Position numbers and translations under genes: made by a program. Positions 5,131-56,975 of a DNA stretch of 64,000 nt are shown one piece after another. This stretch comes from Desulfatiglandales bacterium. GTDB taxonomy: Bacteria; Desulfobacterota; DSM-4660; Desulfatiglandales; Desulfatiglandaceae. Within the stretch, counting starts at the first letter, position 1, and each line of letters begins with the position of its first letter. The notes under the pieces were generated by a model. The model was not told the DNA's origin and did not search any database. It worked only from the letters and a program-made list of their open reading frames with translations. The stretch lies in the NCBI GenBank assembly GCA_963662465.1, contig OY759599.1:32001-96000 (forward strand). The letters run 5' to 3'.

Positions 5131-5526
5131 AGAAACCCCTTGTCGTTAATAACCGGGTACAGACCTCAACATAACAACCACCAAGAGTCAACGGCAGATT
5201 TGACCCCATGCCCTTTGATGCACATCCCAAGGTCACTGAAGGTGTAAAACCACGACCCGGCATCGAGTGGCAGGTGACTTCAATATAAGGACGTTATAAC
5301 CAACACCCAAATAACGGCAATAAGGAAGGCCTGACCCCATCATCACAACCCTCTAACGCATCCAAATCCGTGTAACCCAAAGGGCGGAGCTGTCTTCAAG
5401 ATTTGACTGCAAAACAAAACCAAAAACCGTGTCATCCGTGAAATCCGCGCCAAAAAAACTAAAGAAACCACCAACGTCCCCTGCACCAATTTGTGTTTCC
5501 GCTTTTCACATATGAGGTAACCAGTC

Positions 5527-5751
5527 ATGAAAAGTCGCATCTTTGATAAACATTTTCCGACGATTCTTGGGGCAGGCAGTGTAATGGAAATCTGGCCAAC
5601 GGAAAATTATGATCGTTATATGCCAGACCCTATTCCGGCAAATAGCCTCAAGGGATATTGGATGAACGTTAACTCGTACGTGTGCAAAGGCATTGTGCAA
5701 TATGAGTTGGATTGCCATACCAGACTAGCCGAAAGTCTAAATGATGAATAA
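5527..5751 (+). CDS. Small hypothetical protein
   Basis: 74-aa ORF with GAGG RBS, bounded by a motif on each side. Confidence 0.5.
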   Translation: MKSRIFDKHFPTILGAGSVMEIWPTENYDRYMPDPIPANSLKGYWMNVNSYVCKGIVQYELDCHTRLAESLNDE

Positions 5752-5794
5752 TAAGCGAAGCCTGACCCCCTAATTTTATGGTCTCGTCCCCCTA

Positions 5795-5865
5795 CCTTTC
5801 CGAATACGAACTGAAGAAGAGGGAGTTTAGGGATCGTACGAAAAGGTACGCTTCGGCTGTTAGTG
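5795..5865 (+). pseudogene. N-terminal fragment of a four-helix-bundle protein
   Basis: ELKKREFRDRTKRYASAV resembles the L.DRTK.FA N-terminus of the family (compare IDERTFDFA at 59019). Confidence 0.4.
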
Positions 5866-6043
5866 CCAACGTTCCCCATTACTCCCCAAATGACAAAGAG
5901 AGCAAAATACCCTCAGTCCATGAGAAATGCAGTTGCGTAGCAACGTCCCCCATTCCACAGACCTCAGGAAATTGGGAACCGCTATAAAAATCTGTTGTCA
6001 TTTTGGCGTCATTAATTTATCCTGTTTGTAAAGAAGGAGGTGT

Positions 6044-6334
6044 ATGATGACGCTGAACAAAACAGAAGAAAGAATTCCTGCCCGAATGCCCCATGAGGTT
6101 TACGAGCGAATTGTTGCGGCTGCCCATACTGTCGGAGCCACACTGAACCAGTTTCTTGTTCAGGCGGCTATTGACAAAGCGAATGAAATTCTGGAAAGGG
6201 AGCGCATTATTTCTCTTACTTCAAAAGACGCAGATACGCTTTTTCATCTGATCGATAATCCGCCTGAACCGAATGATCATCTCAAAGCAATTATGAATCA
6301 GAGAGAGGCAGAGGCGCTTTTGTGCCGGAAATAG
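6044..6334 (+). CDS. DUF1778 (TacA-like) RHH antitoxin
   Basis: ERI.ARMP...I..AA..G..LNQF pattern and PPEPN; AGGAGG RBS; overlaps a GNAT gene. Confidence 0.88.
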   Translation: MMTLNKTEERIPARMPHEVYERIVAAAHTVGATLNQFLVQAAIDKANEILERERIISLTSKDADTLFHLIDNPPEPNDHLKAIMNQREAEALLCRK

Positions 6335-6825
6335 GTTCTCTTTTTCGCCATCATGACCGGGCCGGATTTGATTGCGGAGTTCCAGCACTGAACGGTTTTC
6401 TCAAGTTCACGGCCAGGCAGCATGGTGATAAAGGGATTTCACGCACATTTGTTTTAACCGGGCCGGAAAACCCATCCATCATTCTGGGCTATTTTACACT
6501 GACACTCTGTGAAGTCAAAACAGAACATCTTCCAGCCTTATATGCCAGGAAATTTCCGAAACACGGGCTTCCAGCCGTTCGACTGGCCCGCCTGGCCGTT
6601 GACACGCGATTTCAGGGTCGTGGATATGGTGGACGTCTTCTTGCCGAAGCGATCCATCGGACGGTTTTGATTGCGGAACATGCAGGCGTGATTGGACTGT
6701 TTGTGGATGCGAAAGATGAAACTGCCTGTCTGTTTTATCAACGGTATGATTTTAAGTCTCTTCCGGACAATATCCGGAAATTGTTTCTGCCGATTGAAAC
6801 CCTACGAAAAGGGTCCCTGCGATAA
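6322..6825 (+). CDS. GNAT acetyltransferase toxin (TacT/AtaT-like)
   Basis: HDRAGFDCG, LARLAVD..FQGRGYG, VDAKDE, FY..Y.F. Confidence 0.9.
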   Translation: MPEIGSLFRHHDRAGFDCGVPALNGFLKFTARQHGDKGISRTFVLTGPENPSIILGYFTLTLCEVKTEHLPALYARKFPKHGLPAVRLARLAVDTRFQGRGYGGRLLAEAIHRTVLIAEHAGVIGLFVDAKDETACLFYQRYDFKSLPDNIRKLFLPIETLRKGSLR

Positions 6826-7006
6826 CTTCAAAAAGAAGGACCCGGAAGCCATCAGGAAGAACCCGGAAAAGTTCCCGGCAGATTTTATATTCGAGTTGAA
6901 CGAAAAGGAACAGGATTTTTTAAGGTCGAAAATTTCGACCATAAAGACAGGAAGGGGCAAGCACGGAAAATTTGCCACAAAGGCTTTCGCGGAACAAGGC
7001 ATTTGA
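6822..7006 (+). pseudogene. ORF6N-domain protein fragment
   Basis: AIRKNPEKFPADFIFELN...LRSKIST...GRG...KAFAEQGI; no start codon and truncated. Confidence 0.7.
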
Positions 7007-7324
7007 TATTCGACAAAGGAAAAACAGGCGCGGTATGGAAAACACGGCAAATAGAAATATGAGAGAAACGCAAGAACGCATGGGCGTCCCCAAGGGCCCC
7101 AGAATATGCTGGTCAGCTGGGTGAGATCCATGCCCTGGGTTTATAATGCGTGCCCTAATCAAGTCCTTAACCCCTAAATCTTAAATCCTAATAACCACAA
7201 TAAATAAACCCTGACCCCCTAATAAAAAATCCGTGTAATCCGTGAAATCCGCGCCAAAAAAAGAAAAAACAGTCATCCCCAACCCCAATAACGACAATAA
7301 AGAAAGCCTGACCCCCTGATTGTT

Positions 7325-7534
7325 ATGACCCATGTCGCAGGTTTTCCATTTTCCATCGTGAACTTTCACAGTATTTATGCCGCGCCCAAAGATTATCTCC
7401 TGGAACTGGCCGGCAGACAGAACCTACGCATTCGGCTTCGGCCGCCATACCGGGAAAACCTGTCGCAGGCCTTTGGCAAGTATTTTATGCGTGTTGGGCT
7501 TCCTCTGGATATTCGAGCGTTTGCTCGCAGTTAG
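7325..7534 (+). pseudogene. C-terminal fragment of a conserved hypothetical protein
   Basis: RIRLRPPYRENLSQAFGKYFMRVGLP; bounded by TGACCCC and TGTCCCC motifs. Confidence 0.55.
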
Positions 7535-7589
7535 ATAGGATGTCCCCATTATAATACAAGCGTAAACTAGTGAAACAAGCAACGTCCCC

Positions 7590-8342
7590 CATTATTTTTT
7601 TGACAGGTTCGAAATAGTTACATTCAAGTATCCAGTCGAATGTTGTACTTTGACCTCCACCTCTCAGATTTATAGGAATTTCCTTTAAGTAGCCATTTAC
7701 TATTATTTTTGTGCCAGGGCATGACCTCTTTTCAGATATTGGCGATATAAGGTCTTGTTTTAAGAAAATTTTCATTTTTTTTGGTTGTTCACCACCGTCA
7801 AGGGTTTCAATATCTTCTTCAATCGTCATATGTTGGGCATCTATCAATTCTTTAGAAAGCATTTTGAATTTACCCTTACGCCCACATCCACATCTTGAAG
7901 GCTCTCTAAATTTCTGTTCAAGTTGAAGAAGTGGTATGATATTTCCACATGAAGGGCATTCAAATTTTGATGTTACAACTTGAGGTCTAATGTCGCTTTT
8001 TTGTCGAATAGTTCCTTGAACACAAATGAATTTTTCTAAATGTTTGCTTCGTAAGTCTCTGATTCGCTTTTTCTGACTTTTTGGAATATTTTTAATCCTT
8101 ACAATTACTTCAATATTATTTTTGATAGCGAGATCAAATAATGAAATTGATATACTTACTGCCTTAAGGGATTCCTCAGGATTTTCAATCAGGTCTTCTG
8201 CTAAATTGATATTCTGTTTTGATATTTCATTAAAATCCATAACGAAATATCTATCCCCTTTTCTTACAGATTCTATAAGGGTGTCATAATAGAGGATTTC
8301 TATTAATTTTCTGTATTCACCTATTTGTTCTTGGGTTTCCAT
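7590..8342 (-). pseudogene. mcm: Archaeal-type MCM helicase, N-terminal domain only (truncated)
   Basis: IRDLRSKHL, FECPSCG...RCGCGRKG zinc finger, QHMTIEE, GGEQPK, DLISP, PG..I.V.G; the AAA+ domain is absent and similarity ends at the CGTCCCC motif. Confidence 0.88.
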
Positions 8343-9031
8343 TGTATAATTTGTTTAGGAGATAATTTTCTATAGCATTCTTTATGCAGAAATACTCCAT
8401 TGTACACTTCTGAATAATCTTTTGAGTCTTTGTGAATAGGGCGCTTACATTTAGCACAGTCACCTATCTTGTTTTTTTCTATATCAGCATCTTCATTGAT
8501 TTCTCCGATTTTAGATTTGTATATTTTATTGAAAGAGATTTTTCTTCTTTCGATATTCGCATAGTCACTTTGATAAAGATATTTGCCATATATCTCATCT
8601 AAGAATTGTTCAACAACTGGTTTGAAATCATCAGAGAGTTTGAATAGTTTTGTTTTTTTATAACTTCTTTTGCCATTTGGATGAATCATATTCCATGTTT
8701 CTCTTATAGCTTTATTCTCATTAGAGTCTTCATGCAATTCTTCAACAATATTCTTCGTTTCAAAGTGAAATAATAAATCTCTTAGGTCTTTGCCATAACC
8801 TAGATTGAAATGCATTGTTAGTTCCCAAAGGCTTGAGACTCCAACGTTATATAGGACATAAACTAATTTGCTTTTCGTTTTATCAAGGAATATAGAAAGG
8901 ATATCTCTGAAGTTTCTTTCAAAATTCAGATTTATATTTTGATCATTATGGATTTCGAGTTTTGAGACAAAATCACAGATTACACATACTCTTCTCTGAA
9001 ATTTGTTTTCAGTGGGTGTGATTGTTGCCAC
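8321..9031 (-). CDS. Hypothetical protein with a C-terminal CxxC...HxxC zinc site (possible replication or regulatory protein)
   Basis: Low-GC ORF overlapping the MCM start; likely GTG start at 9031; CAKC...LHKEC. Confidence 0.6.
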   Translation of the reverse strand: MATITPTENKFQRRVCVICDFVSKLEIHNDQNINLNFERNFRDILSIFLDKTKSKLVYVLYNVGVSSLWELTMHFNLGYGKDLRDLLFHFETKNIVEELHEDSNENKAIRETWNMIHPNGKRSYKKTKLFKLSDDFKPVVEQFLDEIYGKYLYQSDYANIERRKISFNKIYKSKIGEINEDADIEKNKIGDCAKCKRPIHKDSKDYSEVYNGVFLHKECYRKLSPKQIIQWKPKNK

Positions 9032-9204
9032 CTCTTTCAAATTTATCCGGCCTTGCAGAGAAATCAGTAATTTCTTCAGGATCAACAAGCCAAATGAAAT
9101 TAGATCCTTTTATGAATAGTTTATTATCTGAAGTAATATTTTTTAGAATTCCGATTGCTTTTCTTTTATTAAAAAGTAAACCACTACCTCTGGTAGTGGA
9201 ATAA

Positions 9205-9800
9205 AAAAAGGTTCTACCGGTGTATTGAATATGACGAGTATTATATGTCTTCCTGGAAGGTGCGAAACTAACAGGAGGCATATAATGACTCGTCAACGTC
9301 AATTCAAGAAATTAGCACATTCTTTGTATGAGTGTAAGTACCATGTGGTGTTTTGCCCGAAATATCGCTACAAAATATTGCAGGAAGAAGTGGCAAAATA
9401 TGTGATGCAACAGATATATCGGTTATGTAATCAAAAAGATGACGTAGAAGTGGTGGAAGGTAATGTGCAAATTGACCATGTTCACCTGGTCGTATCAATC
9501 CCTCCGAAATACGCCATATCGCAGTTCATGGGGTTCCTGAAGGGGAAACTGGCTCTACAACTATTTGACCGTTTTCCTCAACTGCGAAAAAAATACTGGG
9601 GACAACATGTGTGGTCGAGAGGCTATTGTGTGAGTACGGTAGGCTTAGATGAAGAGCGGATCAAAAAGTATGTAAAATGGCAGCATAGTAAAGATAAAGA
9701 TGCCCATGTGACGCAAGGTAAATTGTTCAAATAGAATAGGTACCATGCACCTTCCAGGTGCATTAATTCAAGCCACCACCTTTGGTGGTGGTCATTGACT
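9205..9800 (+). mobile_element. IS200/IS605-family element (tnpA only)
   Basis: Y1 transposase plus 3' hairpin CCACCACCTTTGGTGGTGG...TTGACT; left end approximate. Confidence 0.85.
9285..9734 (+). CDS. tnpA: IS200-family Y1 HUH transposase
   Basis: CKYHVVFCPKYR, DHVHL, WSRGYCVSTVG, KKYV; AGGAGG RBS. Confidence 0.95.
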   Translation: MTRQRQFKKLAHSLYECKYHVVFCPKYRYKILQEEVAKYVMQQIYRLCNQKDDVEVVEGNVQIDHVHLVVSIPPKYAISQFMGFLKGKLALQLFDRFPQLRKKYWGQHVWSRGYCVSTVGLDEERIKKYVKWQHSKDKDAHVTQGKLFK

Positions 9801-9967
9801 CTTTCTTTCAGCAACAACAAACATTCCTAGAAAGTTTCTGTACTGCTCAACTAAACTATCATTTGTCAAATATACACCTCTAAACTTATCTTATCTAAAA
9901 CCGTAAAATATATATACTCATTACCCTTAGAATTCACTAAGTTGTTCAATCTTAATGTTTGAGTGAT

Positions 9968-10174
9968 TTAGCCTTGTTCTTTCAGGGTGGGATCAGGACC
10001 AGGGCTGGGTGCTCTGGTCTGCTTTTTTTTAATATCATCTGGAATATCTACAGTTACTATACTTCCTATTTCAACAACATCATTATACATTGGTGGGACA
10101 GAAATAAATTTTCTTGTGTTTCCATGTCTATCCTTTCCAGCTTTGATTGCCTTTGCTCTAAACCTCATACACAC
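9968..10174 (-). CDS. Small AbrB-like DNA-binding protein (tentative)
   Basis: KAIKAG...RKFISVPP....V.IG..V.VDI swapped-hairpin-like pattern. Confidence 0.45.
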   Translation of the reverse strand: MCMRFRAKAIKAGKDRHGNTRKFISVPPMYNDVVEIGSIVTVDIPDDIKKKQTRAPSPGPDPTLKEQG

Positions 10175-10229
10175 ACGATAAACACAGCATATATTTAAAC
10201 TTTCCTAACTCCTTTTAAGTGGTTAATAA

Positions 10230-10515
10230 ACTCTACGCCATTTTACGTAGAGTGTTTTTGCAACATGTTATAAAAAACTATCAAAAAGTATGATTTTTGC
10301 CGGAAAATTGACTCTACGGAATTATCACGTAGAGTCCTATTTTGACCTATTTGTTGCCTCTGAAAAATAACTCTACGGTCAAAACACGTAGAGTGGTTTT
10401 TATGCATTTACCGTGTTTAACTTAACTACTACTCTACGTATTTTCTACTAGTAGTTAGTCTACGTTACATAAATATATATTATATAATATACTCTACGGA
10501 ATTATCGCGTAGAGT
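10230..10515. repeat. Five regularly spaced palindromes ACTCTACG-N8/9-CGTAGAGT (candidate origin or operator array)
   Basis: Copies start at 10230, 10311, 10370, 10431 (degenerate) and 10491; AT-only tract at 10471-10490. Confidence 0.85.
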
Positions 10516-10591
10516 TAAATCCTTATTTTTTGATGAAAATGTCAAAATCCACCAAAAAGTATATATACTCAAGCATGTATGAATAAAAAAT

Positions 10592-11803
10592 ATGGCAGAA
10601 ATTGATATCCTTGCACCTTTCCGAAACATCAGCCCAGGCCAATTCATATCCAGATATTCTGATTGGATTCTTTTTATACTCCTGATCTTCTTTTTTTGGT
10701 CCGTTATCACAATCTCACTCAAAAAACGCTTTGGTGATTCAAAGGCATTTAGAATCCTAGCAACCTCTACAGCCCTATTATTATCAGTTAGTACATACTA
10801 TATGATTTACAAAGGCAAACTTAACATATCTCTAGAAGGGCTTGGTATGTTTGGAGCCATGCTCGTCCTGATTGTGATATTTTTCATTCTTTTTGCTCTG
10901 CAAAGAAACTTTAATATGAAAACTAAACTTTCTCTTCCATTAGGATTTGTCCTGTTTTATTTGTCGCTAGTTAGACTAACACCTAACATCATGAATGATA
11001 TCCAAAATATATTTCCATTTGCAAAAGCAATTATGGTAGGACTATTTTTATTTTCATTATATAGGGTGATAGTCGAGTTCATAAAACATTCAAAAGGAGA
11101 TTTGAAGTTAGAAGCACAAAAAATAGAAAATATTCGAATCCCACCAAAAGATGTGCCAGAGATCAACCATGAGCTGAAGGATGACAAGAAGGAAAAAAAA
11201 CTGCTGAAAGGCAAAACCTTGAAACTTACAAAGATGGAGATCAATACTGTTGATGATATAGAAAACCTACTAGGCCACCTAATTAAATTGATTAAGGAGA
11301 AAGGCAAAAATATCAGTCAGGATGAAACCTTGCAGATCTCCAACTATCTTAGGCAATTGTCTAACAAAGAAAATATTCTCATCAGAAGTATGCCTATTTT
11401 GAAAAGGCAGGCAGAAATCTTCAAATCAAAACATAGAAAAGATATCAATGAACTCCAAAAGCGATACCAGGAAGCCAAGGATAATCCTAAACAACAGGAA
11501 ATAATAAAAGAAGAAATCTCATTCCAAAAGCGAATGATTGAAGTGCTGGACTTCATCGAAACCTATGAAAATAGAATCGTAGAATTCACACAATCACTCA
11601 ACCAAACAATCTCTAAGTCTATGATTAAGCTCAGAAGTATTTACCCTCACGAATGCGTGGAATATCTGGAATCTGCCAGAAAATCGATTGAAGGCATGAA
11701 ACATATTTTCAAAAAACAAAAAGAGCTTGAGAAATATGTCCTCTCGCTGAACAAGAAAACAATTAAGGATCTGAAGAAAGAAAAAAAGGCAGATCAATCT
11801 TAA
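10592..11803 (+). CDS. Membrane protein (~5 N-terminal TM segments) with a coiled-coil C-terminus
   Basis: 403-aa ORF; hydrophobic N-half and K/E-rich helical C-half. Confidence 0.75.
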   Translation: MAEIDILAPFRNISPGQFISRYSDWILFILLIFFFWSVITISLKKRFGDSKAFRILATSTALLLSVSTYYMIYKGKLNISLEGLGMFGAMLVLIVIFFILFALQRNFNMKTKLSLPLGFVLFYLSLVRLTPNIMNDIQNIFPFAKAIMVGLFLFSLYRVIVEFIKHSKGDLKLEAQKIENIRIPPKDVPEINHELKDDKKEKKLLKGKTLKLTKMEINTVDDIENLLGHLIKLIKEKGKNISQDETLQISNYLRQLSNKENILIRSMPILKRQAEIFKSKHRKDINELQKRYQEAKDNPKQQEIIKEEISFQKRMIEVLDFIETYENRIVEFTQSLNQTISKSMIKLRSIYPHECVEYLESARKSIEGMKHIFKKQKELEKYVLSLNKKTIKDLKKEKKADQS

Positions 11804-11930
11804 AATTAGAACAACGCTCAAAGATTAATCTTTTGCCTTCTGATTTGGCACGCCAGACATCTGTTTGACTCAATGCATTGTTAAGAAAGAAGTTTCTTTG
11901 TAGAAATTGGTTTCGCGCTTTCAATTTTAG

Positions 11931-12119
11931 TCACCTCAAATTGCCAAAATAGGCATTATAGTTTTTACCGAAAGAAGGGTTTGAATTGCTCACCTTTTTT
12001 CTATTCTCATCCTCAATAACGAGGCAAATATTTCCGTTCTGAATCCTATATTTGTCGATTACTTTGCCATCAATTGTCTGCAATGAATTCATATAACCCA
12101 TTTTTGTCGAAGCCTTTAG
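11931..12119 (-). pseudogene. 3' part of a hypothetical gene interrupted by IS701
   Basis: The ORF runs into the IS end and the reading frame appears to continue past 14066. Confidence 0.4.
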
Positions 12120-12336
12120 TTCTACTTTGTCACTCTCCATTTGAGGGTTATTTTCAATATATGCTATTGATTTAATTTATATTTTTCTCTTGACATGGTC
12201 AGAATAACATGTTAGTTTCGACCCATGAAAAAACGAAATCAATGGGGCGTTGGTATGAGTACCAACAGCCCACCAGAACAATCGTAGTCTTGATAAAGGA
12301 GCGACCCATGCCAACAGCCCCCTCGGGGGCATAGAT

Positions 12337-13662
12337 GTGTATTTTGGTGAGTTCCACGATAGATATTCTCCGTTATTTCAAACACATAGCAGAGTAGCGG
12401 CAAGAAAGTCTCTTCAATATTTTAAAGGCTTGGTCCAAGCAAAGAAAAAGAACATGGAGCGGATGGCCGAGGCTGTTCCTTTTTCAGATGATCAAGCTCT
12501 TCAACATTTTTTGACAAATTCTCGGTGGGATGAACAACTGATTGTCGACCAAATTGCGGCAGACGCAAACAATCATATTGGGGGAAAACAAGACAGCTGT
12601 TTGATCATTGATGAAACGGGGTTCCCCAAGAAAGGAGATAAGTCGGTTGGGGTTAAAAGGCAGTGGTGTGGGCAACTTGGGAAGGTAGACAATTGTCAGG
12701 TAGGCGTTTTTTCAGCGCTTGGGTGCAGGGAACACGCTACTCCTGTTGGCTTCAAATTGTACCTTCCGGAAGACTGGACTGATGATAAGGAAAGATGTAA
12801 AGCTGCTGGTATTCCAGATGAATCCATTGTTTTTTACAGCAAGCATGACCTTGCTTTCCAGCTGGTCCTTGAGGCCCGGAAACAGGGCATTCAATTCGGC
12901 TGGGTCGGTGCAGATGGTTTCTACGGGGAAAGCCCTGCCTTTTTACGGTCTTTGGATCAAATCAATGAAACCTTCATGATTGACGTTCATAAGAATCAAC
13001 GTATTTATCTCGAAAACCCGGAGCCGGTAGTTCCACAGAGAAGATCAAATAAAGGTCCAGAGCCGAAAAAGGCAAAAGCCCAAACAGAACCTGTCAGGGT
13101 CGATAAGTGGTCAGAACAACAGCCGGAAGATGCTTGGCAGAGAACGAATGTAAGAGACACGACCAAGGGAAAGCTTCAGGTCGACGTTCTGCATAGACGT
13201 GTATGGCTTTGGGACGGGGAGGAACTGGAGGCACATTGTTGGCACCTGATTGTTCGGAGGGAGGTTGCTGGAAATAAAGTAAAATTTACTTTGAGCAATG
13301 CTCCAGAGAACACTTCGCTGGAACGTTTGATATTTATGCAGGCACAGCGCTACTGGATAGAGCGTTCATTTCAAGACGCAAAGGTTGAATGTGGTTTAGG
13401 GGAGTACCAGGTGCGAAAGTGGCGGAGTTGGCATCACCACATGGCAATGGTCATGATGGCAATGCTATTTTTATTAGAGCAACGCCTTTTATATAAAAGG
13501 GATATCCCCTTATTGAGTTGTTTTGACATTGTTTGCATTCTTTCATTTCTTTTACCCCAAAGAGCCTTCACAACGGATGAAGTTTTTCGGCAAATGGAAA
13601 TTCGCCACAAAAAGCGTCAATCTGCAATTGACTCAGCATATCGTAAACAGCTCGCAGAATAA
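12337..13662 (+). CDS. IS701-family DDE transposase
   Basis: IIDETGFPKKGDKSVGVKRQWCGQLGKVDNCQ, GADGFYG, RYWIERSFQDAKVECGL. Confidence 0.95.
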   Translation: MYFGEFHDRYSPLFQTHSRVAARKSLQYFKGLVQAKKKNMERMAEAVPFSDDQALQHFLTNSRWDEQLIVDQIAADANNHIGGKQDSCLIIDETGFPKKGDKSVGVKRQWCGQLGKVDNCQVGVFSALGCREHATPVGFKLYLPEDWTDDKERCKAAGIPDESIVFYSKHDLAFQLVLEARKQGIQFGWVGADGFYGESPAFLRSLDQINETFMIDVHKNQRIYLENPEPVVPQRRSNKGPEPKKAKAQTEPVRVDKWSEQQPEDAWQRTNVRDTTKGKLQVDVLHRRVWLWDGEELEAHCWHLIVRREVAGNKVKFTLSNAPENTSLERLIFMQAQRYWIERSFQDAKVECGLGEYQVRKWRSWHHHMAMVMMAMLFLLEQRLLYKRDIPLLSCFDIVCILSFLLPQRAFTTDEVFRQMEIRHKKRQSAIDSAYRKQLAE

Positions 13663-13685
13663 GCGGAAGGTTGGTTGTGGGAAAG

Positions 13686-14040
13686 CAGCAATTCTAATTA
13701 CGGCTTTTGAGTTAAGCCGCAGTTTGTTTTTTTTGTTGCCATTCACGGGTAGCGAATTCACCTTATTCCCAGATTCTGTTCAGGAATAAGGGAAAAAACA
13801 TTAGGCGCTGGATGTTATTGTAGGGGCAAGCCCCTGTGCCTGCCCTGCTGATGCTGTCCAAACGCCTTAATAGAGGACAAGCAGGGTAACCACGGGGGGA
13901 TTGCCCCTACGGCACGACATAAAACTGGATGTGTAATGAGATGTGTTTGTGGGAGCAACTTTCAGAACTACGAGAAATTGTGGAGGAATGCCGTCTGTAC
14001 TGCGTTTTGCGATTAAACGACATCATAATGAGAATTGCTG
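13686..14040. mobile_element. Non-autonomous MITE inserted at the IS701 right end
   Basis: IRs CAGCAATTCT / AGAATTGCTG; 9-bp duplication GTGGGAAAG at 13677-13685 and 14041-14049. Confidence 0.85.
13820..13910. repeat. GTAG-type REP pair inside the MITE
   Basis: GTAGGGGCAAGCCCCTGTGCCTGCCC ... GGGTAACCACGGGGGGATTGCCCCTAC. Confidence 0.75.
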
Positions 14041-14406
14041 GTGGGAAAGTGACAAAGTAGAATTAGTTGTTTGGGAAATACTGGAAGCTTTTAAATCTTT
14101 CGGTTTAGGGTGAGCAGCCTTGGATTTTCGAGGTATGGTTACAAAATAGGATTTCTTGTCTATGTATTTAAGCGATTATCAGCTGAAAGGGAAGGAGCAT
14201 TGGAATATCTTTCGCAGAACTACCCTCACTTGCCCGCCAATGCCTTTCTGGGCGTAATGGTTCAGACAGCTTAAATGGCAAAAAAGTGATCCAGCATAAT
14301 AGATTGTGTATAATGACGATGGCAGGCGGGGATGGTAAAAGAAGTGCAAAAGATCCTGGCCCGATCGGAAACCGAGGTTTTATCCTGAAATTTTATCGTT
14401 TTTGTG

Positions 14407-15225: not shown

Positions 15226-15320
15226 ACTTCAACCCAAAACCCAAAACTCAAAACCCAAAACCGCTGTTCCAATGCCCGAAACTCAAAACCCAAAACTGCT
15301 GTTCCAATGCCCAAAACCGC
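15226..15320 (+). repeat. C-rich heptamer tract (AAAACCC/AAAACTC) with CTGCTGTTCC
   Basis: Reverse complement of part of the 105-bp array unit at 54-57 kb. Confidence 0.85.
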
Positions 15321-15460
15321 CTTCTTGTAATCCAAAGAGCGGGGAGCTATGTGCGAAGTACCTTAAGAACCATGATCTTACTGCCCTCTGCCCCCTGACA
15401 ACTGCACCCTTTAACAACGACAATAAGGAAAGCCTTACACGAATTGGAGGAGAAGGAACT

Positions 15461-15847
15461 ATGCCGACGGCCCTGGAATTGCTCCCAAAAGGTTGGCGTT
15501 ATTACATTGAGGCTGCGTCCCGCCGGCCCGCCCCACCTGAATTGACCCAGGAACAGGAACACCAACGCGAGCAGATTATAGCGCGACTTCAAGAGGTGGC
15601 AGCAATGCTGAAAAGCCGCTTTGGTGTTCGACGAGTTATTTTATTTGGCTCGCTTGCCCGAAAGCTCTCGTTTACTCCTGGTTCAGATGTGGATATAGCC
15701 GTTGAAGGACTGAACACGAAAAAATATTGGCAGGCTTGGAAGTTGGCTGAGGAGATGATCGGAGATCGCCCAGTGGACTTTGTCCAAATTGAGACAGCGA
15801 AAGAGTCTCTCAAGCGAGCGGTTCAACGCTATGGAATAGACCTATGA
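15461..15847 (+). CDS. Minimal nucleotidyltransferase (MNT) antitoxin
   Basis: VILFGSLAR...SDVDIAV...VDFV; start ATG 15461 after an RBS. Confidence 0.88.
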   Translation: MPTALELLPKGWRYYIEAASRRPAPPELTQEQEHQREQIIARLQEVAAMLKSRFGVRRVILFGSLARKLSFTPGSDVDIAVEGLNTKKYWQAWKLAEEMIGDRPVDFVQIETAKESLKRAVQRYGIDL

Positions 15848-24695: not shown

Positions 24696-24802
24696 TCATG
24701 ATACAACAAGTAACGGACGAGGATAGAGAGTAATCTTCATTATCTACCGACGTCCCCCCCCATTCCACGTCCCCCCCATTCCATATAAGTATTGGAGGAA
24801 TT

Positions 24803-25036
24803 ATGGAAGCTTTTGAGTTTGAAACCGTTCATGAAAATGGAATGATCACAATACCCGATGAAATTAGACATAACTTAACGAAGAAACTTAAGATAATTAT
24901 TCTGACCCAAGAGGAAAAAGAAACTGCTTTAAGTAAACTGTTGCTTGATGCTCCTACATGGAATGAATCTTATATAACTGAGTTTTATAAAGAAATTCGA
25001 GAAGGATATGCAGATTGGAAGATAGACGAATTCTAG
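24803..25036 (+). CDS. Putative antitoxin
   Basis: MEAFEFET...G.I.IP; overlaps the PIN gene; GGAGG RBS. Confidence 0.65.
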   Translation: MEAFEFETVHENGMITIPDEIRHNLTKKLKIIILTQEEKETALSKLLLDAPTWNESYITEFYKEIREGYADWKIDEF

Positions 25037-25404
25037 TTGACACTTCTGTTGTTATTGATCACTTCAGAAAGAAAAATAAACAAAAGTCATTACTTTATGA
25101 ACTGGCAAAAGATAACAAATTGTTTTTGTCTGCGATAAGCAAATTTGAGTTTTTGGTAGGTACAAAACCTTCCCAAATTAGTCAAACAGAAAAACTAATT
25201 GAAGGGTTTTTTATTTTATCTTTCAATTCTAATGTTGCTGCTGTTGCAAGTGATATTGCCAAAAAATTAAAAACAAAAAATAAAATTATCGAATTTAGAG
25301 ATATATTTATTGCTGCAACAGCTATTGCCAACGATATACCGCTATCTACTTTAAATATTAAACATTTCGAAAGAATAGATGATTTAGAATTAATTGGTTT
25401 TTAG
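25015..25404 (+). CDS. vapC: VapC (PIN) toxin
   Basis: ILVDTSVVID, D.FIAATA, TLN.KHF. Confidence 0.9.
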   Translation: MEDRRILVDTSVVIDHFRKKNKQKSLLYELAKDNKLFLSAISKFEFLVGTKPSQISQTEKLIEGFFILSFNSNVAAVASDIAKKLKTKNKIIEFRDIFIAATAIANDIPLSTLNIKHFERIDDLELIGF

Positions 25405-29043: not shown

Positions 29044-29517
29044 GATCTAAAACCATTTAAAACCCGCGGTTTTTCAAGGATCTTGATATCTTCTTTAAGG
29101 GTGCTGTTGGCGCGTTCAGCAGCGGACCGCAAATTCTTGATGGTGTTGTACCGTCCGGACCCTCTTGGAATTTCATTGATCAGACGCGGATACTCTTTGA
29201 TGGACATGTGCTTTGCAAAACCGGTTCGATTTCCAATATGAGGGGATTGGGAGATATTGTAGACGGCTTGAAGATTTTCCAGGGTGGTCTTATTGAGCTT
29301 AAGACACTGCTTGAAACAACAAAAGGTCAACCGCTGATGCTCCTGGTCAAACCCATTGGGCAGGGTAAGGAGTCCACAAGGGGCAAAAGGCCAGCCGTTC
29401 TGATCATACCCCCGATTCAAAATGGCAGTTTTGGATAAATCTTCGTTTCTTCGATTGTAATCAATGGTGGTCTTGGTCCGGATATAATAGCCGGTTTTAT
29501 TAGTTCACGCTTTCATG

Positions 29518-53806: not shown

Positions 53807-53879
53807 CGCAGATTGGGGTTCTCGCGCAAAGACGCAGAGGCGCAAGGGCTAGAAGATCAGAAGGTCAGGGGTTTCTGGG

Positions 53880-54278
53880 ATGCAAATTGATTTTCATCAT
53901 ACTGTAACATATGTGGTAGCCAGGTTGGCGGGTTTTGGGCACAGAGAGGCTGAGGTCGTCTCTTACTGCGCCCAGTATGTGGACGATGCGACGAACACTG
54001 GCGAGATCATTTTTGAGAATGGCGCCATGTATGGCCGCATCTGTTCAGCGCACAAGGGTTTGGACTACCGGCACTTTGATGCTCTGGCCAGTCGCAGGGT
54101 GTGGGTGCCGTTTCATTTTCTGCCGGCAAATGGTGGTAAGAAGGCGGGGGAAAATCCGTATGGGACCTTCATTGATAAGTTGGTGTGTGGACCAGACAGT
54201 CATGTGCTGAGAGATATGGTGCGAATGTGCATTGAAAAGCGGGACGCTCTGTTTGGCTTGCATCGGCTGGGGATTTAA
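53880..54278 (+). pseudogene. DUF6765-like protein, probably C-terminally truncated
   Basis: MQIDFHH..TY..AR.AGF...QYVDD...VPFHF; ends at LHRLGI next to the array. Confidence 0.6.
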
Positions 54279-54288
54279 ATACAGTGAT

Positions 54289-56975
54289 GAGTTTTGGGTT
54301 TTGGGTTTTGAGTTAAAGGAAACGTCCTGATTATGGTTGATAGGAAGATCTTTAAAGGCAGTTTTGGGTTATGGGTTAGGGAACAGCAGTTTTGGGTTTT
54401 GGGTTTTGAGTTTTGAGTTAAAGGAAACGTCCTGATTATGGGTGATAGGAAGATCTTTAAAGGCAGTTTTGAGTTTTGGGTTAGGGAACAGCAGTTTTGG
54501 GTTTTGAGTTTTGGGTTTTGAGTTAAAGGAAACGTCCTGATTATGGGTGATAGGAAGATCTTTAAAGACAGTTTTGGGTTATGGGTTAGGGAACAGCAGT
54601 TTTGGGTTTTGGGTTTTGGGTTTTGAGTTAAAGGAAACGTCCTGATTATGGGTGATAGGAAGATCTTTAAAGGCAGTTTTGAGTTTTGGGTTAGGGAACA
54701 GCAGTTTTGGGTTTTGAGTTTTGGGTTTTGAGTTAAAGGAAACGTCCTGATTATGGGTGATAGGAAGATCTTTAAAGACAGTTTTGGGTTACGGGTTAGG
54801 GAACTGCAGTTTTGAGTTTTGAGTTTTGGGTTTTGAGTTAAAGGAAACGTCCTGATTATGGGTTATGGGAAGATCTTTAAAGGCAGTTTTGGGTTTTGGG
54901 TTAGGGAACAGCAGTTTTGGGTTTTGAGTTTTGAGTTTTGAGTTAAAGGAAACGTCCTGATTATGGGTGATAGGAAGATCTTTAAAGACAGTTTTGGGTT
55001 ATGGGTTAGGGAACTGCAGTTTTGAGTTTTGAGTTTTGGGTTTTGAGTTAAAGGAAACGTCCTGATTATGGGTTATGGGAAGATCTTTAAAGGCAGTTTT
55101 GGGTTTTGGGTTAGGGAACAGCAGTTTTGAGTTTTGGGTTTTGGGTTTTGAGTTAAAGGAAACGTCCTGATTATGGGTTATGGGAAGATCTTTAAAGGCA
55201 GTTTTGGGTTTTGGGTTAGGGAACAGCAGTTTTGGGTTTTGAGTTTTGAGTTTTGAGTTAAAGGAAACGTCCTGATTATGGGTGATAGGAAGATCTTTAA
55301 AGACAGTTTTGGGTTATGGGTTAGGGAACTGCAGTTTTGAGTTTTGAGTTTTGGGTTTTGAGTTAAAGGAAACGTCCTGATTATGGGTGATGGGAAGATC
55401 TTTAAAGACAGTTTTGGGTTATGGGTTAGGGAACAGCAGTTTTGGGTTTTGAGTTTTGGGTTTTGAGTTAAAGGAAACGTCCTGATTATGGTTGATAGGA
55501 AGATCTTTAAAGACAGTTTTGGGTTATGGGTTAGGGAACTGCAGTTTTGGGTTTTGAGTGTTGGGTTTTGAGTTAAAGGAAACGTCCTGATTATGGGTGA
55601 TGGGAAGATCTTTAAAGACAGTTTTGGGTTATGGGTTAGGGAACAGCAGTTTTGGGTTTTGAGTTTTGAGTTTTGAGTTAAAGGAAACGTCCTGATTATG
55701 GTTGATAGGAAGATCTTTAAAGGCAGTTTTGGGTTTTGGGTTAGGGAACAGCAGTTTTGAGTTTTGGGTTTTGAGTTAAAGGAAACGTCCTGATTATGGG
55801 TGATAGGAAGATCTTTAAAGACAGTTTTGGGTTATGGGTTAGGGAACAGCAGTTTTGGGTTTTGAGTTTTGAGTTTTGAGTTAAAGGAAACGTCCTGATT
55901 ATGGGTGATGGGAAGATCTTTAAAGACAGTTTTGGGTTATGGGTTAGGGAACAGCAGTTTTGGGTTTTGAGTTTTGGGTTTTGAGTTAAAGGAAACGTCC
56001 TGATTATGGGTGATAGGGAGATCTTTAAAGGCAGTTTTGGGTTATGGGTTAGGGAACAGCAGTTTTGGGTTTTGAGTTTTGGGTTATGAGTTAAAGGAAA
56101 CGTCCTGATTATGGGTGATGGGAAGATCTTTAAAGACAGTTTTGGGTTATGGGTTAGGGAACAGCAGTTTTGGGTTTTGAGTTTTGAGTTTTGAGTTAAA
56201 GGAAACGTCCTGATTATGGGCGATGGGAAGATCTTTAAAGACAGTTTTGGGTTATGGGTTAGGGAACAGCAGTTTTGGGTTTTGAGTTTTGGGTTTTGAG
56301 TTAAAGGAAACGTCCTGATTATGGGTGATGGGAAGATCTTTAAAGACAGTTTTGGGTTATGGGTTAGGGAACTGCAGTTTTGGGTTTTGGGTTTTGGGTT
56401 TTGAGTTAAAGGAAACGTCCTGATTATGGGTGATGGGAAGATCTTTAAAGACAGTTTTGGGTTATGGGTTAGGGAACAGCAGTTTTGGGTTTTGAGTTTT
56501 GAGTTTTGAGTTAAAGGAAACGTCCTGATTATGGGTGATGGGAAGATCTTTAAAGACAGTTTTGGGTTATGGGTTAGGGAACAGCAGTTTTGGGTTTTGA
56601 GTTTTGAGTTAAAGGAAACGTCCTGATTATGGTTGATAGGAAGATCTTTAAAGACAGTTTTGGGTTTTGGGTTAGGGAACTGCAGTTTTGGGTTTTGAGT
56701 TTTGAGTTTTGAGTTAAAGGAAACGTCCTGATTATGGGTGATGGGAAGATCTTTAAAGACAGTTTTGGGTTATGGGTTAGGGAACAGCAGTTTTGGGTTT
56801 TGAGTTTTGGGTTTTGAGTTAAAGGAAACGTCCTGATTATGGGTGATGGGAAGATCTTTAAAGACAGTTTTGGGTTATGGGTTAGGGAACTGCAGTTTTG
56901 GGTTTTGGGTTTTGGGTTTTGAGTTAAAGGAAACGTCCTGATTATGGGTGATGGGAAGATCTTTAAAGACAGTTT
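54289..56975 (+). repeat. Tandem array of 26 units of 105 bp (two units 98 bp), G/T-rich and non-coding
   Basis: AAGGAAACGTCC recurs at 54316, 54421 ... 56927; each unit equals 15 heptads. Confidence 0.97.

Follow-up and report, generated by a model that had tools for sequence, protein, structure and literature searches.

A truncated archaeal-type MCM gene in a low-GC block of a Desulfatiglandales chromosome, probably the relic of a bacterial integrative element

Introduction

MCM is a classical hallmark of replication in archaea and eukaryotes. In this study, we analyzed 64,000 nucleotides (nt) from a Desulfatiglandales bacterium (contig OY759599.1 of assembly GCA_963662465.1, positions 32,001 to 96,000), hereafter the window, in which an original prediction made from the letters had noticed the N-terminal domain of an MCM within a block of low guanine-plus-cytosine (GC) content. 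The block, from 7600 to about 12121, has a GC content of 31-33%, against 49.5% in the genome. We believe that it is probably the inactive relic of a low-GC bacterial integrative, plasmid-like element that used an MCM derived from DPANN archaea.

Capture of MCM by archaeal proviruses and integrated plasmids has been described (Krupovic et al. 2010, as cited in PMC4889955 and PMC5862659). As outlined there, these elements use a cellular MCM as their helicase, and the family described here resembles them in this respect and in the tyrosine integrase and tRNA target seen on one relative, L026. The difference is that donor and element share a host domain in the archaeal cases, whereas here the integrase, the attachment (att) fragment and the location of the relic are bacterial. 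In bacteria, MCM-like helicases include BcMCM of a Bacillus cereus prophage, the PrimQH family and Cch of SCCmec, and they occur in phages and integrative plasmids; the excerpts of PMC5862659 used here describe them as highly divergent and often fused to archaeo-eukaryotic primases (AEP) or linked with DUF927/DUF3987. The same 2018 survey judged recent archaeal transfer of the bacterial MCMs unlikely. The superfamily 6 (SF6) helicases of bacteriophages, DUF3987 proteins, are only distant MCM relatives in the account of PMC4889955. As in BcMCM, PrimQH and Cch, a bacterial mobile element would rely here on an SF6/MCM-type helicase rather than on DnaB. Unlike those helicases as they are portrayed in that literature, the present MCM is a stand-alone canonical protein (MCM_N/OB, lid and archaeal winged helix) with more than 50% identity to living archaeal MCMs. 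In the titles and abstracts found by searching the literature, no canonical archaeal MCM on a bacterial integrative element was described; table S1 of PMC5862659, a list of bacterial plasmids that encode MCM, could contain relatives.

Results

The MCM Fragment of the Window

The fragment and the sequence into which its reading frame runs are as follows.

7600..8342, minus strand: MCM relic, residues 1-247, with the helical subdomain, the zinc site and the OB fold
7485..7599, minus strand: read-through tail of 38 codons and a stop, host-type sequence unrelated to MCM

The open reading frame (ORF) that carries the fragment (7485..8342, minus strand) encodes 285 amino acids (aa). Pfam MCM_OB (PF17207) matched it at 7e-24 over residues 94-221, and MCM_N matched it weakly (1.4e-3). 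Solved archaeal MCM N-terminal domains also matched, led by 1LTL (1e-25), which we take to be a construct of an isolated archaeal MCM N-terminal domain, and followed by 4ME3 and 4POF. The zinc site CPSC...CGCGRKG consists of C129, C132, C151 and C153, which align with the cysteines of the 1LTL chain. All 120 best database matches have the CxC form of this site, as do 137 of 149 more distant library representatives; seven of the remainder have CxxC and five were not parsed. The fragment is confirmed as a canonical archaeal-type MCM N-terminal domain.

The likeness to MCM stops at residue 247. The AAA+ P-loop motor (PF00493, Walker A/B), the AAA-lid and the C-terminal winged helix were not found in the window ORF. 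A genome-wide search with PF00493 found no MCM motor elsewhere, the best match (1.3e-5) falling in unrelated AAA+ genes, and there is no tyrosine integrase among the relic genes. Because the whole AAA+ motor and any integrase are missing, the window copy is most likely a dead relic and not a working replication module.

Full-Length Relatives

On four metagenome contigs (L024-L027), the MCM gene is complete; the encoded proteins have 685-686 aa and share 77-84% identity with the fragment. The neighbors of the MCM gene in the window can be compared with those on the contigs.

8321..9088, minus strand: ORF255, an orphan conserved directly upstream of the MCM gene
9009..9869, minus strand: ORF76, a 76-codon gene split by an IS200-type insertion sequence (IS) into 9009-9170 and 9801-9869
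9968..10174, minus strand: small ORF of 68 aa, conserved across the element family
10231..10514, no strand: palindromes and an AT-rich stretch between divergent genes (the 68-aa ORF and ORF403)

The order ORF76-ORF255-MCM (686 aa) is kept on L024 and L025, so a search for full-length elements of the same synteny, which had been proposed as a check, was successful. ORF255 is 78-79% identical and stands at the same position on both contigs, and ORF76 is 87-92% identical. L025 additionally keeps the small upstream ORF, as a homologue of 46 aa (L025 182..322; DNA likeness 70%), and two of the palindromes. The block and the relatives together range from 31 to 36% GC. A relative of ORF255 lies on a contig of 73,802 nt, and the MCM P0003 likewise lies on a contig of 73,802 nt.

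The most informative relative was L026 (9.9 kb). Its MCM of 685 aa, 78% identical to the window fragment, has the P-loop motor (3.8e-85), MCM_lid (1.9e-22) and MCM_WH_arc (6e-7), with intact Walker motifs (GDPGAGKT and DELDK). Only MCM-family and generic AAA+ domains were matched, with neither an AEP primase fusion nor DUF927/DUF3987. The MCM gene is followed by several orphan genes, a 733-aa P-loop ATPase, an HTH_17 excisionase-like protein and a tyrosine integrase (Phage_integrase 1.1e-25; phrog_1 2.7e-55), next to which lie the 3' part of a tRNA-Glu(UUC) gene and then a hairpin and a T-run. This fragment is att evidence for one end only, and no contig of the relatives has both ends. Distant integrase paralogues excepted, the other L026 genes have no counterpart elsewhere in the host genome.

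Among the 120 matches listed for the L026 integrase, those named to a taxon are all bacterial (Desulfatiglans 51%, Syntrophales 39%, Aquificota 41%). The last 25 nt of the L026 tRNA-Glu were found with at most two mismatches in 67 of 201 host-phylum genomes, twice exactly, versus 0 of 201 genomes from the phylum of a Woesearchaeota MAG (metagenome-assembled genome); with at most three mismatches they were found in none of five DPANN genomes. The 733-aa ATPase matched in 4 of 301 host-phylum genomes (best 1.5e-40) versus 1 of 301 DPANN genomes (1.2e-13). On the kinship of the integrase, the tRNA-Glu fragment and the ATPase, we favor the view that elements of this family live in bacteria.

Kinship of the MCM

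In a search of 5.8 billion proteins, the best matches of the fragment were unnamed and were followed by proteins labeled Woesearchaeota, Nanoarchaeota or 'archaeon' at 52-57% identity; a Kosmotogaceae MAG label (P0006, 60%) was the lone non-archaeal name among the named best matches. A look-up of the nine closest MCM clusters gave no further names. When one genome per GTDB species was searched, 13 loci matched the fragment at 45-56% identity, of which six were labeled Woesearchaeota, Nanoarchaeota or Nanoarchaeia, six 'uncultured Methanosarcinales' and one Binatia bacterium. The 'uncultured Methanosarcinales' labels (L011, L012, L014, L019-L021) appear doubtful, as four of these loci cluster with rows labeled Nanoarchaeota. 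The 'Candidatus Binatia bacterium' locus (L023, DATILO010000016.1) was considered as a second bacterial case and rejected: its contig is archaeal (aIF2-beta, PolD DP2) and was mis-binned.

Aligned over its entire length, the L026 MCM shares 53-58% identity with named Woesearchaeota and Nanoarchaeota MCMs. In the plasmid and phage collections it reached at most 38% among the 15 best rows per search, all of which are archaeal; the bacterial matches there (two of Proteus and four of Bacillus) are all below 60% and none is among the 15 best rows. The IMG/VR viral contigs contained no match to the fragment or to the L026 integrase and a single match, of 30%, to the L026 MCM. Since no match to the fragment was found in 400 other host-phylum genomes, the MCM does not belong to a vertically inherited bacterial family.

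A quick maximum-likelihood tree was built from 70 rows picked from the hit lists, with 250 columns and an arbitrary root. The window sequence falls in a starred clade of eight with L024-L027, P0001, P0002 and P0004, nested in a starred clade of 12 that joins a polytomy of named DPANN sequences. The phylogeny suggested with the original prediction thus places the fragment beside Woesearchaeota and Nanoarchaeota sequences. The guess of a DPANN relation from the motif CGCGRKG also held, the nearest named MCMs (45-57%), the zinc style and the tree neighborhood all pointing the same way, and the alignments support reading this zinc-site style as a mark of the Woesearchaeota/Nanoarchaeota group. The MCM gene of the family appears to have come from DPANN (Woesearchaeota-like) archaea, with the direction of transfer probably from archaea to the element. 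Compared with the chromosomal MCM of Woesearchaeota and Nanoarchaeota, the window gene has the same domain order and the same CxxC...CxC zinc site; it differs in lying in a bacterial chromosome, in being cut after residue 247 and in having neighbors, ORF76 and ORF255, that are unnamed anywhere.

Near-Identical Copies in the Environment

Contigs of two metagenomes, X1 from a plastisphere and X2 from freshwater, match 7600-9169 and 9800 to about 12000 with 94-100% identity; in both, ORF403 accompanies the MCM part within that range of identity. Uncovered parts in X1, X2 and a further run, X24, were not counted as absence unless a contig joins across, and runs X3-X21, with small word shares, were left out of the comparison. 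Past 7600, the X1 contig reads ...EPVNEDFGELKIS, as L026 does, instead of the EPVKKIMGDVA of the window, and its first 30 nt beyond this point continue the MCM frame. The X2 contig past 7600 has sequence unlike the window, and X1 has no cover on the host flanks compared. Because the contigs of X1 (and X2) run past 7600, an almost identical element in which the MCM continues beyond the break exists in the environment. The identity of 94-100% is evidence that the relic may be young, a recent arrival. At the other side of the block, the abundant X2 variant leaves the window sequence left of 11836, and read depth of X1 persists into the bin 11925-12141. For the 10-nt loose end of X2 at 11836, a single distant match was found in the window, which is within chance.

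Breakpoint and Host Repeats

The likeness to full-length MCMs stops at 7599|7600 (tblastn: residue 247-249; blastn: window 7600). A host repeat lies beside this point.

7555..7593, plus strand: host repeat beside the breakpoint, with the 16-mer AGCAACGTCCCCCATT at 7578-7593 and a 37-nt repeat at 7555-7591

The breakpoint is 6 nt away from the 16-nt repeat. The original prediction placed the cut exactly at the 10-mer CAACGTCCCC; this motif is at 7580-7589, and the likeness actually ends 10 nt from it. The 16-mer occurs a second time at 5939-5954, and the 37-nt repeat is 97% identical to positions 7039457-7039493 of the host genome (G000). When up to one mismatch is allowed, a 13-mer of the repeat is present 60 times in the genome; 23 of these sites fall in 7.0-7.1 Mb, and two islands described below contain most of the rest. 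The family consists of direct repeats within the gaps that separate small genes.

Sites of the family were seen at window 5300-7600, 22840, 24748-24774 and 25465 and at G000 7.00-7.11 Mb, and their parts read (ATCCTGT)x2-3 ... TAACAAAAG..CC-AACGTCCCCCATTAC, also GAATAGTGGAATAGTGGC-AACGTCCCCCATTAC and GCCTGACCCCCTAAT. The family is host-specific, limited to three genome regions, and marks gaps among small cassette-like genes. An integron attC was considered for the motif CAACGTCCCC and rejected, the repeats being direct rather than inverted and unlike those beside integrons: the repeats adjoining three of the genome's integron integrases differ from AACGTCCCCCATT. Five integron integrases in the genome pass the NCBIfam cut-off; partial ones are also present, one of which (6845296-6848178) is split by the same DDE_5-type IS that lies at 12122-14065 of the window. 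An IS end was unsupported as an explanation of the motif, since the IS200 and the DDE IS have different ends.

Tandem Islands and Insertion Sequences

The window corresponds to G000:C1:32001-96000 of a single contig of 8,161,625 nt that is rated 100% complete. The region recurs at G000 8,082,092-8,161,625, and the MCM junction is present twice, at G000 39600 and 8092546, within 12,025 nt of 99.99% identity. Beyond these 12,025 nt, the identity between the copies drops to 98.6-99.1% and further on mainly to 94-96%, with individual short segments varying between 80% and 99.5%. A second occurrence of the final 27 nt of the tmRNA gene (8081765-8082118) is found at 29146-29172, 2.85 kb left of the window start. 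Since the 3' end of the tmRNA gene recurs and the region is duplicated, two islands stand in tandem at ssrA. Each starts with an integrase-like gene, followed by toxin-antitoxin cassettes and polysaccharide genes. The relic lies about 10 kb inside the tmRNA-gene island, and the diverged island copies share one breakpoint.

Two insertion sequences are found in and beside the block in the window copy.

9170..9799, plus strand: IS200-type IS, with TnpA at 9225..9734 (Y1_Tnp, PF01797, 3.8e-38)
12122..14065, plus strand: DDE_5-type IS, with the transposase at 12337..13662 (DDE_5, 3e-60)

A bacterial-type IS200 inside the block had been noticed before; the Y1_Tnp match bears this out, and a check of the rest of the host genome found three other copies at 98.8-99.8% identity (four in total). 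With the same Y1 transposase as the IS200/IS605 family, about 630 nt and near-identical copies, it shows nothing unusual and is a secondary insertion that splits ORF76. It is in neither the second genomic copy nor X1, whose contig goes from 9169 to 9800. The DDE_5 IS has two other genome copies and is likewise not in the second copy; X2 joins 12121 directly to the sequence after it. The second copy has insertions of its own, a 5-kb IS21-like element that interrupts the 68-codon ORF and, within the group of palindromes, another DDE IS. ORF76 is unbroken there (L010 7955..8185), so that a different module gene was lost in each copy, ORF76 in the window copy and the small upstream ORF in the second. 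Because the copies share the breakpoint but differ in their insertions, the truncation came first and the IS hits later. The IS21-like element (L010 8475-13497, in the second island) carries a ParB-like gene, IstA, IstB and a zinc-finger gene.

Run X22, which contains 98% of the sampled words, was probably obtained from the source organism. Its Logan contig 18 covers 7562-9193, crossing 7599|7600 with 38 nt on the left and reaching into the host-specific IS200, and contig 22 covers 9771-12149; the two link the block to ends of host-specific IS copies. Both sites for which spanning reads had been suggested, 7590 and 12120, are crossed in this way, by contigs and not by raw long reads.

The tandem islands measure about 73-80 kb, and the identity gradient looks like recent homogenization of their left ends. 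The right end of the contig (G000 8161625) falls precisely where the islands cease to be alike, matching G000 101959 (window 69959, beyond the 64,000 nt analyzed), and the last 959 nt are 100% identical to the other island; the assembly may be unresolved or not circularized at this end. The second copy was considered as an untrimmed assembly overlap and this was rejected: its left boundary is the tmRNA att repeat, and dnaA is not at contig position 1; the right boundary is unexplained. X24 is a second sample labeled as the same organism. One of its contigs (773 nt) connects 8064 directly to 7125, a step back of 940, and the depth falls about fivefold over 8019-9103; the relic seems to be arranged differently in this sample, through either tandem duplication or additional loss of sequence.

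Elsewhere in the window, toxin-antitoxin-type genes lie at 6044-6825, 15272-15847 and 25015-25404 (a TacA-like antitoxin with a GNAT toxin, a nucleotidyltransferase and a PIN-domain gene). Polysaccharide-synthesis genes surround them at 16-50 kb, with a low-GC glycosyltransferase/EpsG block at 36-43 kb. A 105-nt tandem repeat array occupies 53876-56975 with an extreme GC skew of 0.5-0.65 and has a shorter copy at G000 8147984-8149128.

Other Genes of the Block

The block does not end at 10520, as first thought; it continues to about 11835-12121 and includes further features.

10592..11803, plus strand: ORF403, a gene of the low-GC block
11836..12121, minus strand: right-hand fringe with two small ORFs, possibly part of the relic

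No relic gene has a match in PHROGs. The relatives of ORF255 form six clusters among the 5.8 billion proteins, none of them named. Its C-terminal Cys/His motif (C211, C214, H235 and C238) is invariant, and the zinc ribbon is the sole confident part of its AlphaFold2 model, which was made from six sequences and has a mean pLDDT of 56. Atlas leads at 0.80-0.87, all below 0.9, are winged helix-turn-helix regulators and TFIIE-alpha. By its position and conservation, ORF255 is a candidate DNA-binding or initiator protein.

The 68-aa ORF has no match to PF04014 or any other Pfam family up to E=5. Its nearest Atlas cluster with a family is MazE_antitoxin/AbrB at a score of 0.76, with PF04014 in 27% of the members. 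The arrangement on one strand that had been described for the block stands for the MCM N-terminal domain, the zinc-motif ORF255, a small ORF and the 68-aa ORF, and the name 'AbrB-like', which has no Pfam match behind it, was not confirmed. Upstream of this ORF, the palindrome CTCTACG-N8/9-CGTAGAG was observed four times versus 0.00 expected, and an AT-rich stretch lies at about 10460-10490. The same four palindromes are present in the second genomic copy. Their position and conservation make the palindromes and the AT-rich stretch a candidate replication origin or operator of the element. ORF403 has no Pfam match; from its translation, read by eye, we judged it to be a putative membrane protein with a coiled-coil tail.

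Discussion

We believe that the block from 7600 to about 12121 descends from an element with two modules. The intact replication module would comprise the palindrome-rich and AT-rich origin, a small regulator-like gene, ORF76, ORF255 and a complete MCM. MCM would act as the helicase, and ORF255, with ORF76 and the small upstream protein, may serve as its DNA-binding partner or loader. The integration module would consist of the excisionase-like helix-turn-helix protein and the tyrosine integrase, with a tRNA-Glu gene as the target. Everything past MCM residue 247, namely the motor, the downstream genes and the integrase, would have been lost at the break 6 nt from the host intergenic repeat. 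The island at the tmRNA gene that carries the relic is present in two tandem diverged copies. After the truncation, the IS200 and a DDE IS entered one copy, and the IS21-like element and another DDE IS the other. For the family as a whole, we lean, with less assurance than for the relic, towards bacterial integrative elements that replicate through a complete canonical MCM acquired rather recently from DPANN archaea, with a palindromic origin of their own and the orphan partner ORF255.

Several points weigh against this reading. The relic is not at a tRNA-Glu gene: no tRNA gene is present in the window, no tRNA-Glu-like att fragment was found there at up to six mismatches, and its route to the tmRNA island is unexplained. 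A truncated tRNA-Glu(CUC) at G000 5475638-5475707 (ARAGORN) looks like the att scar of another element. No intact member was seen in a named closed bacterial genome, and the bacterial host of L026 depends on one contig end, the integrase kinship and a weak ATPase signal. The roles of origin and initiator are proposed from position and conservation only, and the model of ORF255 is too poor for a fold search. The archaeal backbone of the tree is a polytomy, so that a DPANN derivation would follow from nearest-neighbor identity and not from nesting. Because MAG labels are unreliable here, as the archaeal contig L023 shows, the Kosmotogaceae label of P0006 proves nothing. The X22 contigs probably come from the source sample and do not provide evidence independent of the assembly, and repeat sequence makes up most of the 38 nt by which contig 18 extends left of the junction.

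The original prediction offered cross-domain capture and a bacterial element using MCM as alternatives, and it is the second that we favor. Direct capture would mean that a piece of DPANN plasmid or provirus DNA became fixed in a bacterial island and that no bacterial element ever used MCM. All domains of the MCM, the winged helix included, are indeed of archaeal type; the weak leads of ORF255 point in part to archaeal regulators or TFIIE-alpha; the GC content of the block and its relatives is far from that of the host; the relic has no integrase or att site and is away from any tRNA-Glu gene; and no intact copy was found in 400 host-phylum genomes. However, L026, at 78% identity, carries an integrase whose taxon-named relatives are all bacterial among the matches listed, the 3' end of its tRNA-Glu (followed by the hairpin and T-run) recurs in a third of the host-phylum genomes searched versus none from DPANN, and the best match of its ATPase is a bacterium. 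We therefore consider direct capture improbable.

On their own, the N-terminal domains of archaeal MCMs assemble into rings and bind DNA. The 285-aa ORF and ORF255 might on that ground have been kept for a function, such as binding an origin and blocking incoming relatives (incompatibility or immunity). Near-identical intact elements in the environment would supply a target, the 285-aa ORF is open in both genomic copies, and ORF255 is intact in both. The copies are 99.98-99.99% identical to each other and 94-100% identical to the environmental ones, however, so that youth alone explains the open frames, and the neighboring module genes, ORF76 and the small upstream ORF, are broken by IS differently in each copy. 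We regard such an exaptation as still less probable than direct capture. A chimeric assembly, in which archaeal reads, from a DPANN cell present as a contaminant or in co-culture, were joined to a bacterial contig, would fit the GC jump at 7600, the X22 short-read unitigs that break at the 37-nt repeat beside the junction and a contig right end within the duplicated region (at least one unresolved assembly spot), but it is very unlikely, given host-specific IS copies within the block that separate contigs bridge to it, a block present in two islands with different IS insertions, a duplication whose left boundary is the biological att repeat of the tmRNA gene, and X22 contig 18 crossing 7599|7600.

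On the preferred reading, a relic of a bacterial integrative element, the window copy itself is ordinary genomic debris. Its value lies in the family, in which a canonical MCM with more than 50% identity to living DPANN MCMs is tied to bacteria twice, once as a relic in a closed chromosome and once in a relative beside a bacterial-type integrase and att fragment. If this reading is true, the relic would be the first anchor of the family in a closed bacterial chromosome, and gene flow from DPANN archaea to the bacterial mobilome would be documented. Loading of a 3'-5' archaeal helicase, and its coupling to the primase and polymerase of a bacterium, would then have to proceed in the absence of Orc1/Cdc6, GINS and Cdc45. 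If intact members replicate in bacteria, they may offer a small natural system, with an origin, two or three small genes and an MCM, in which the loading of an archaeal helicase and its cooperation with a bacterial replisome can be addressed.

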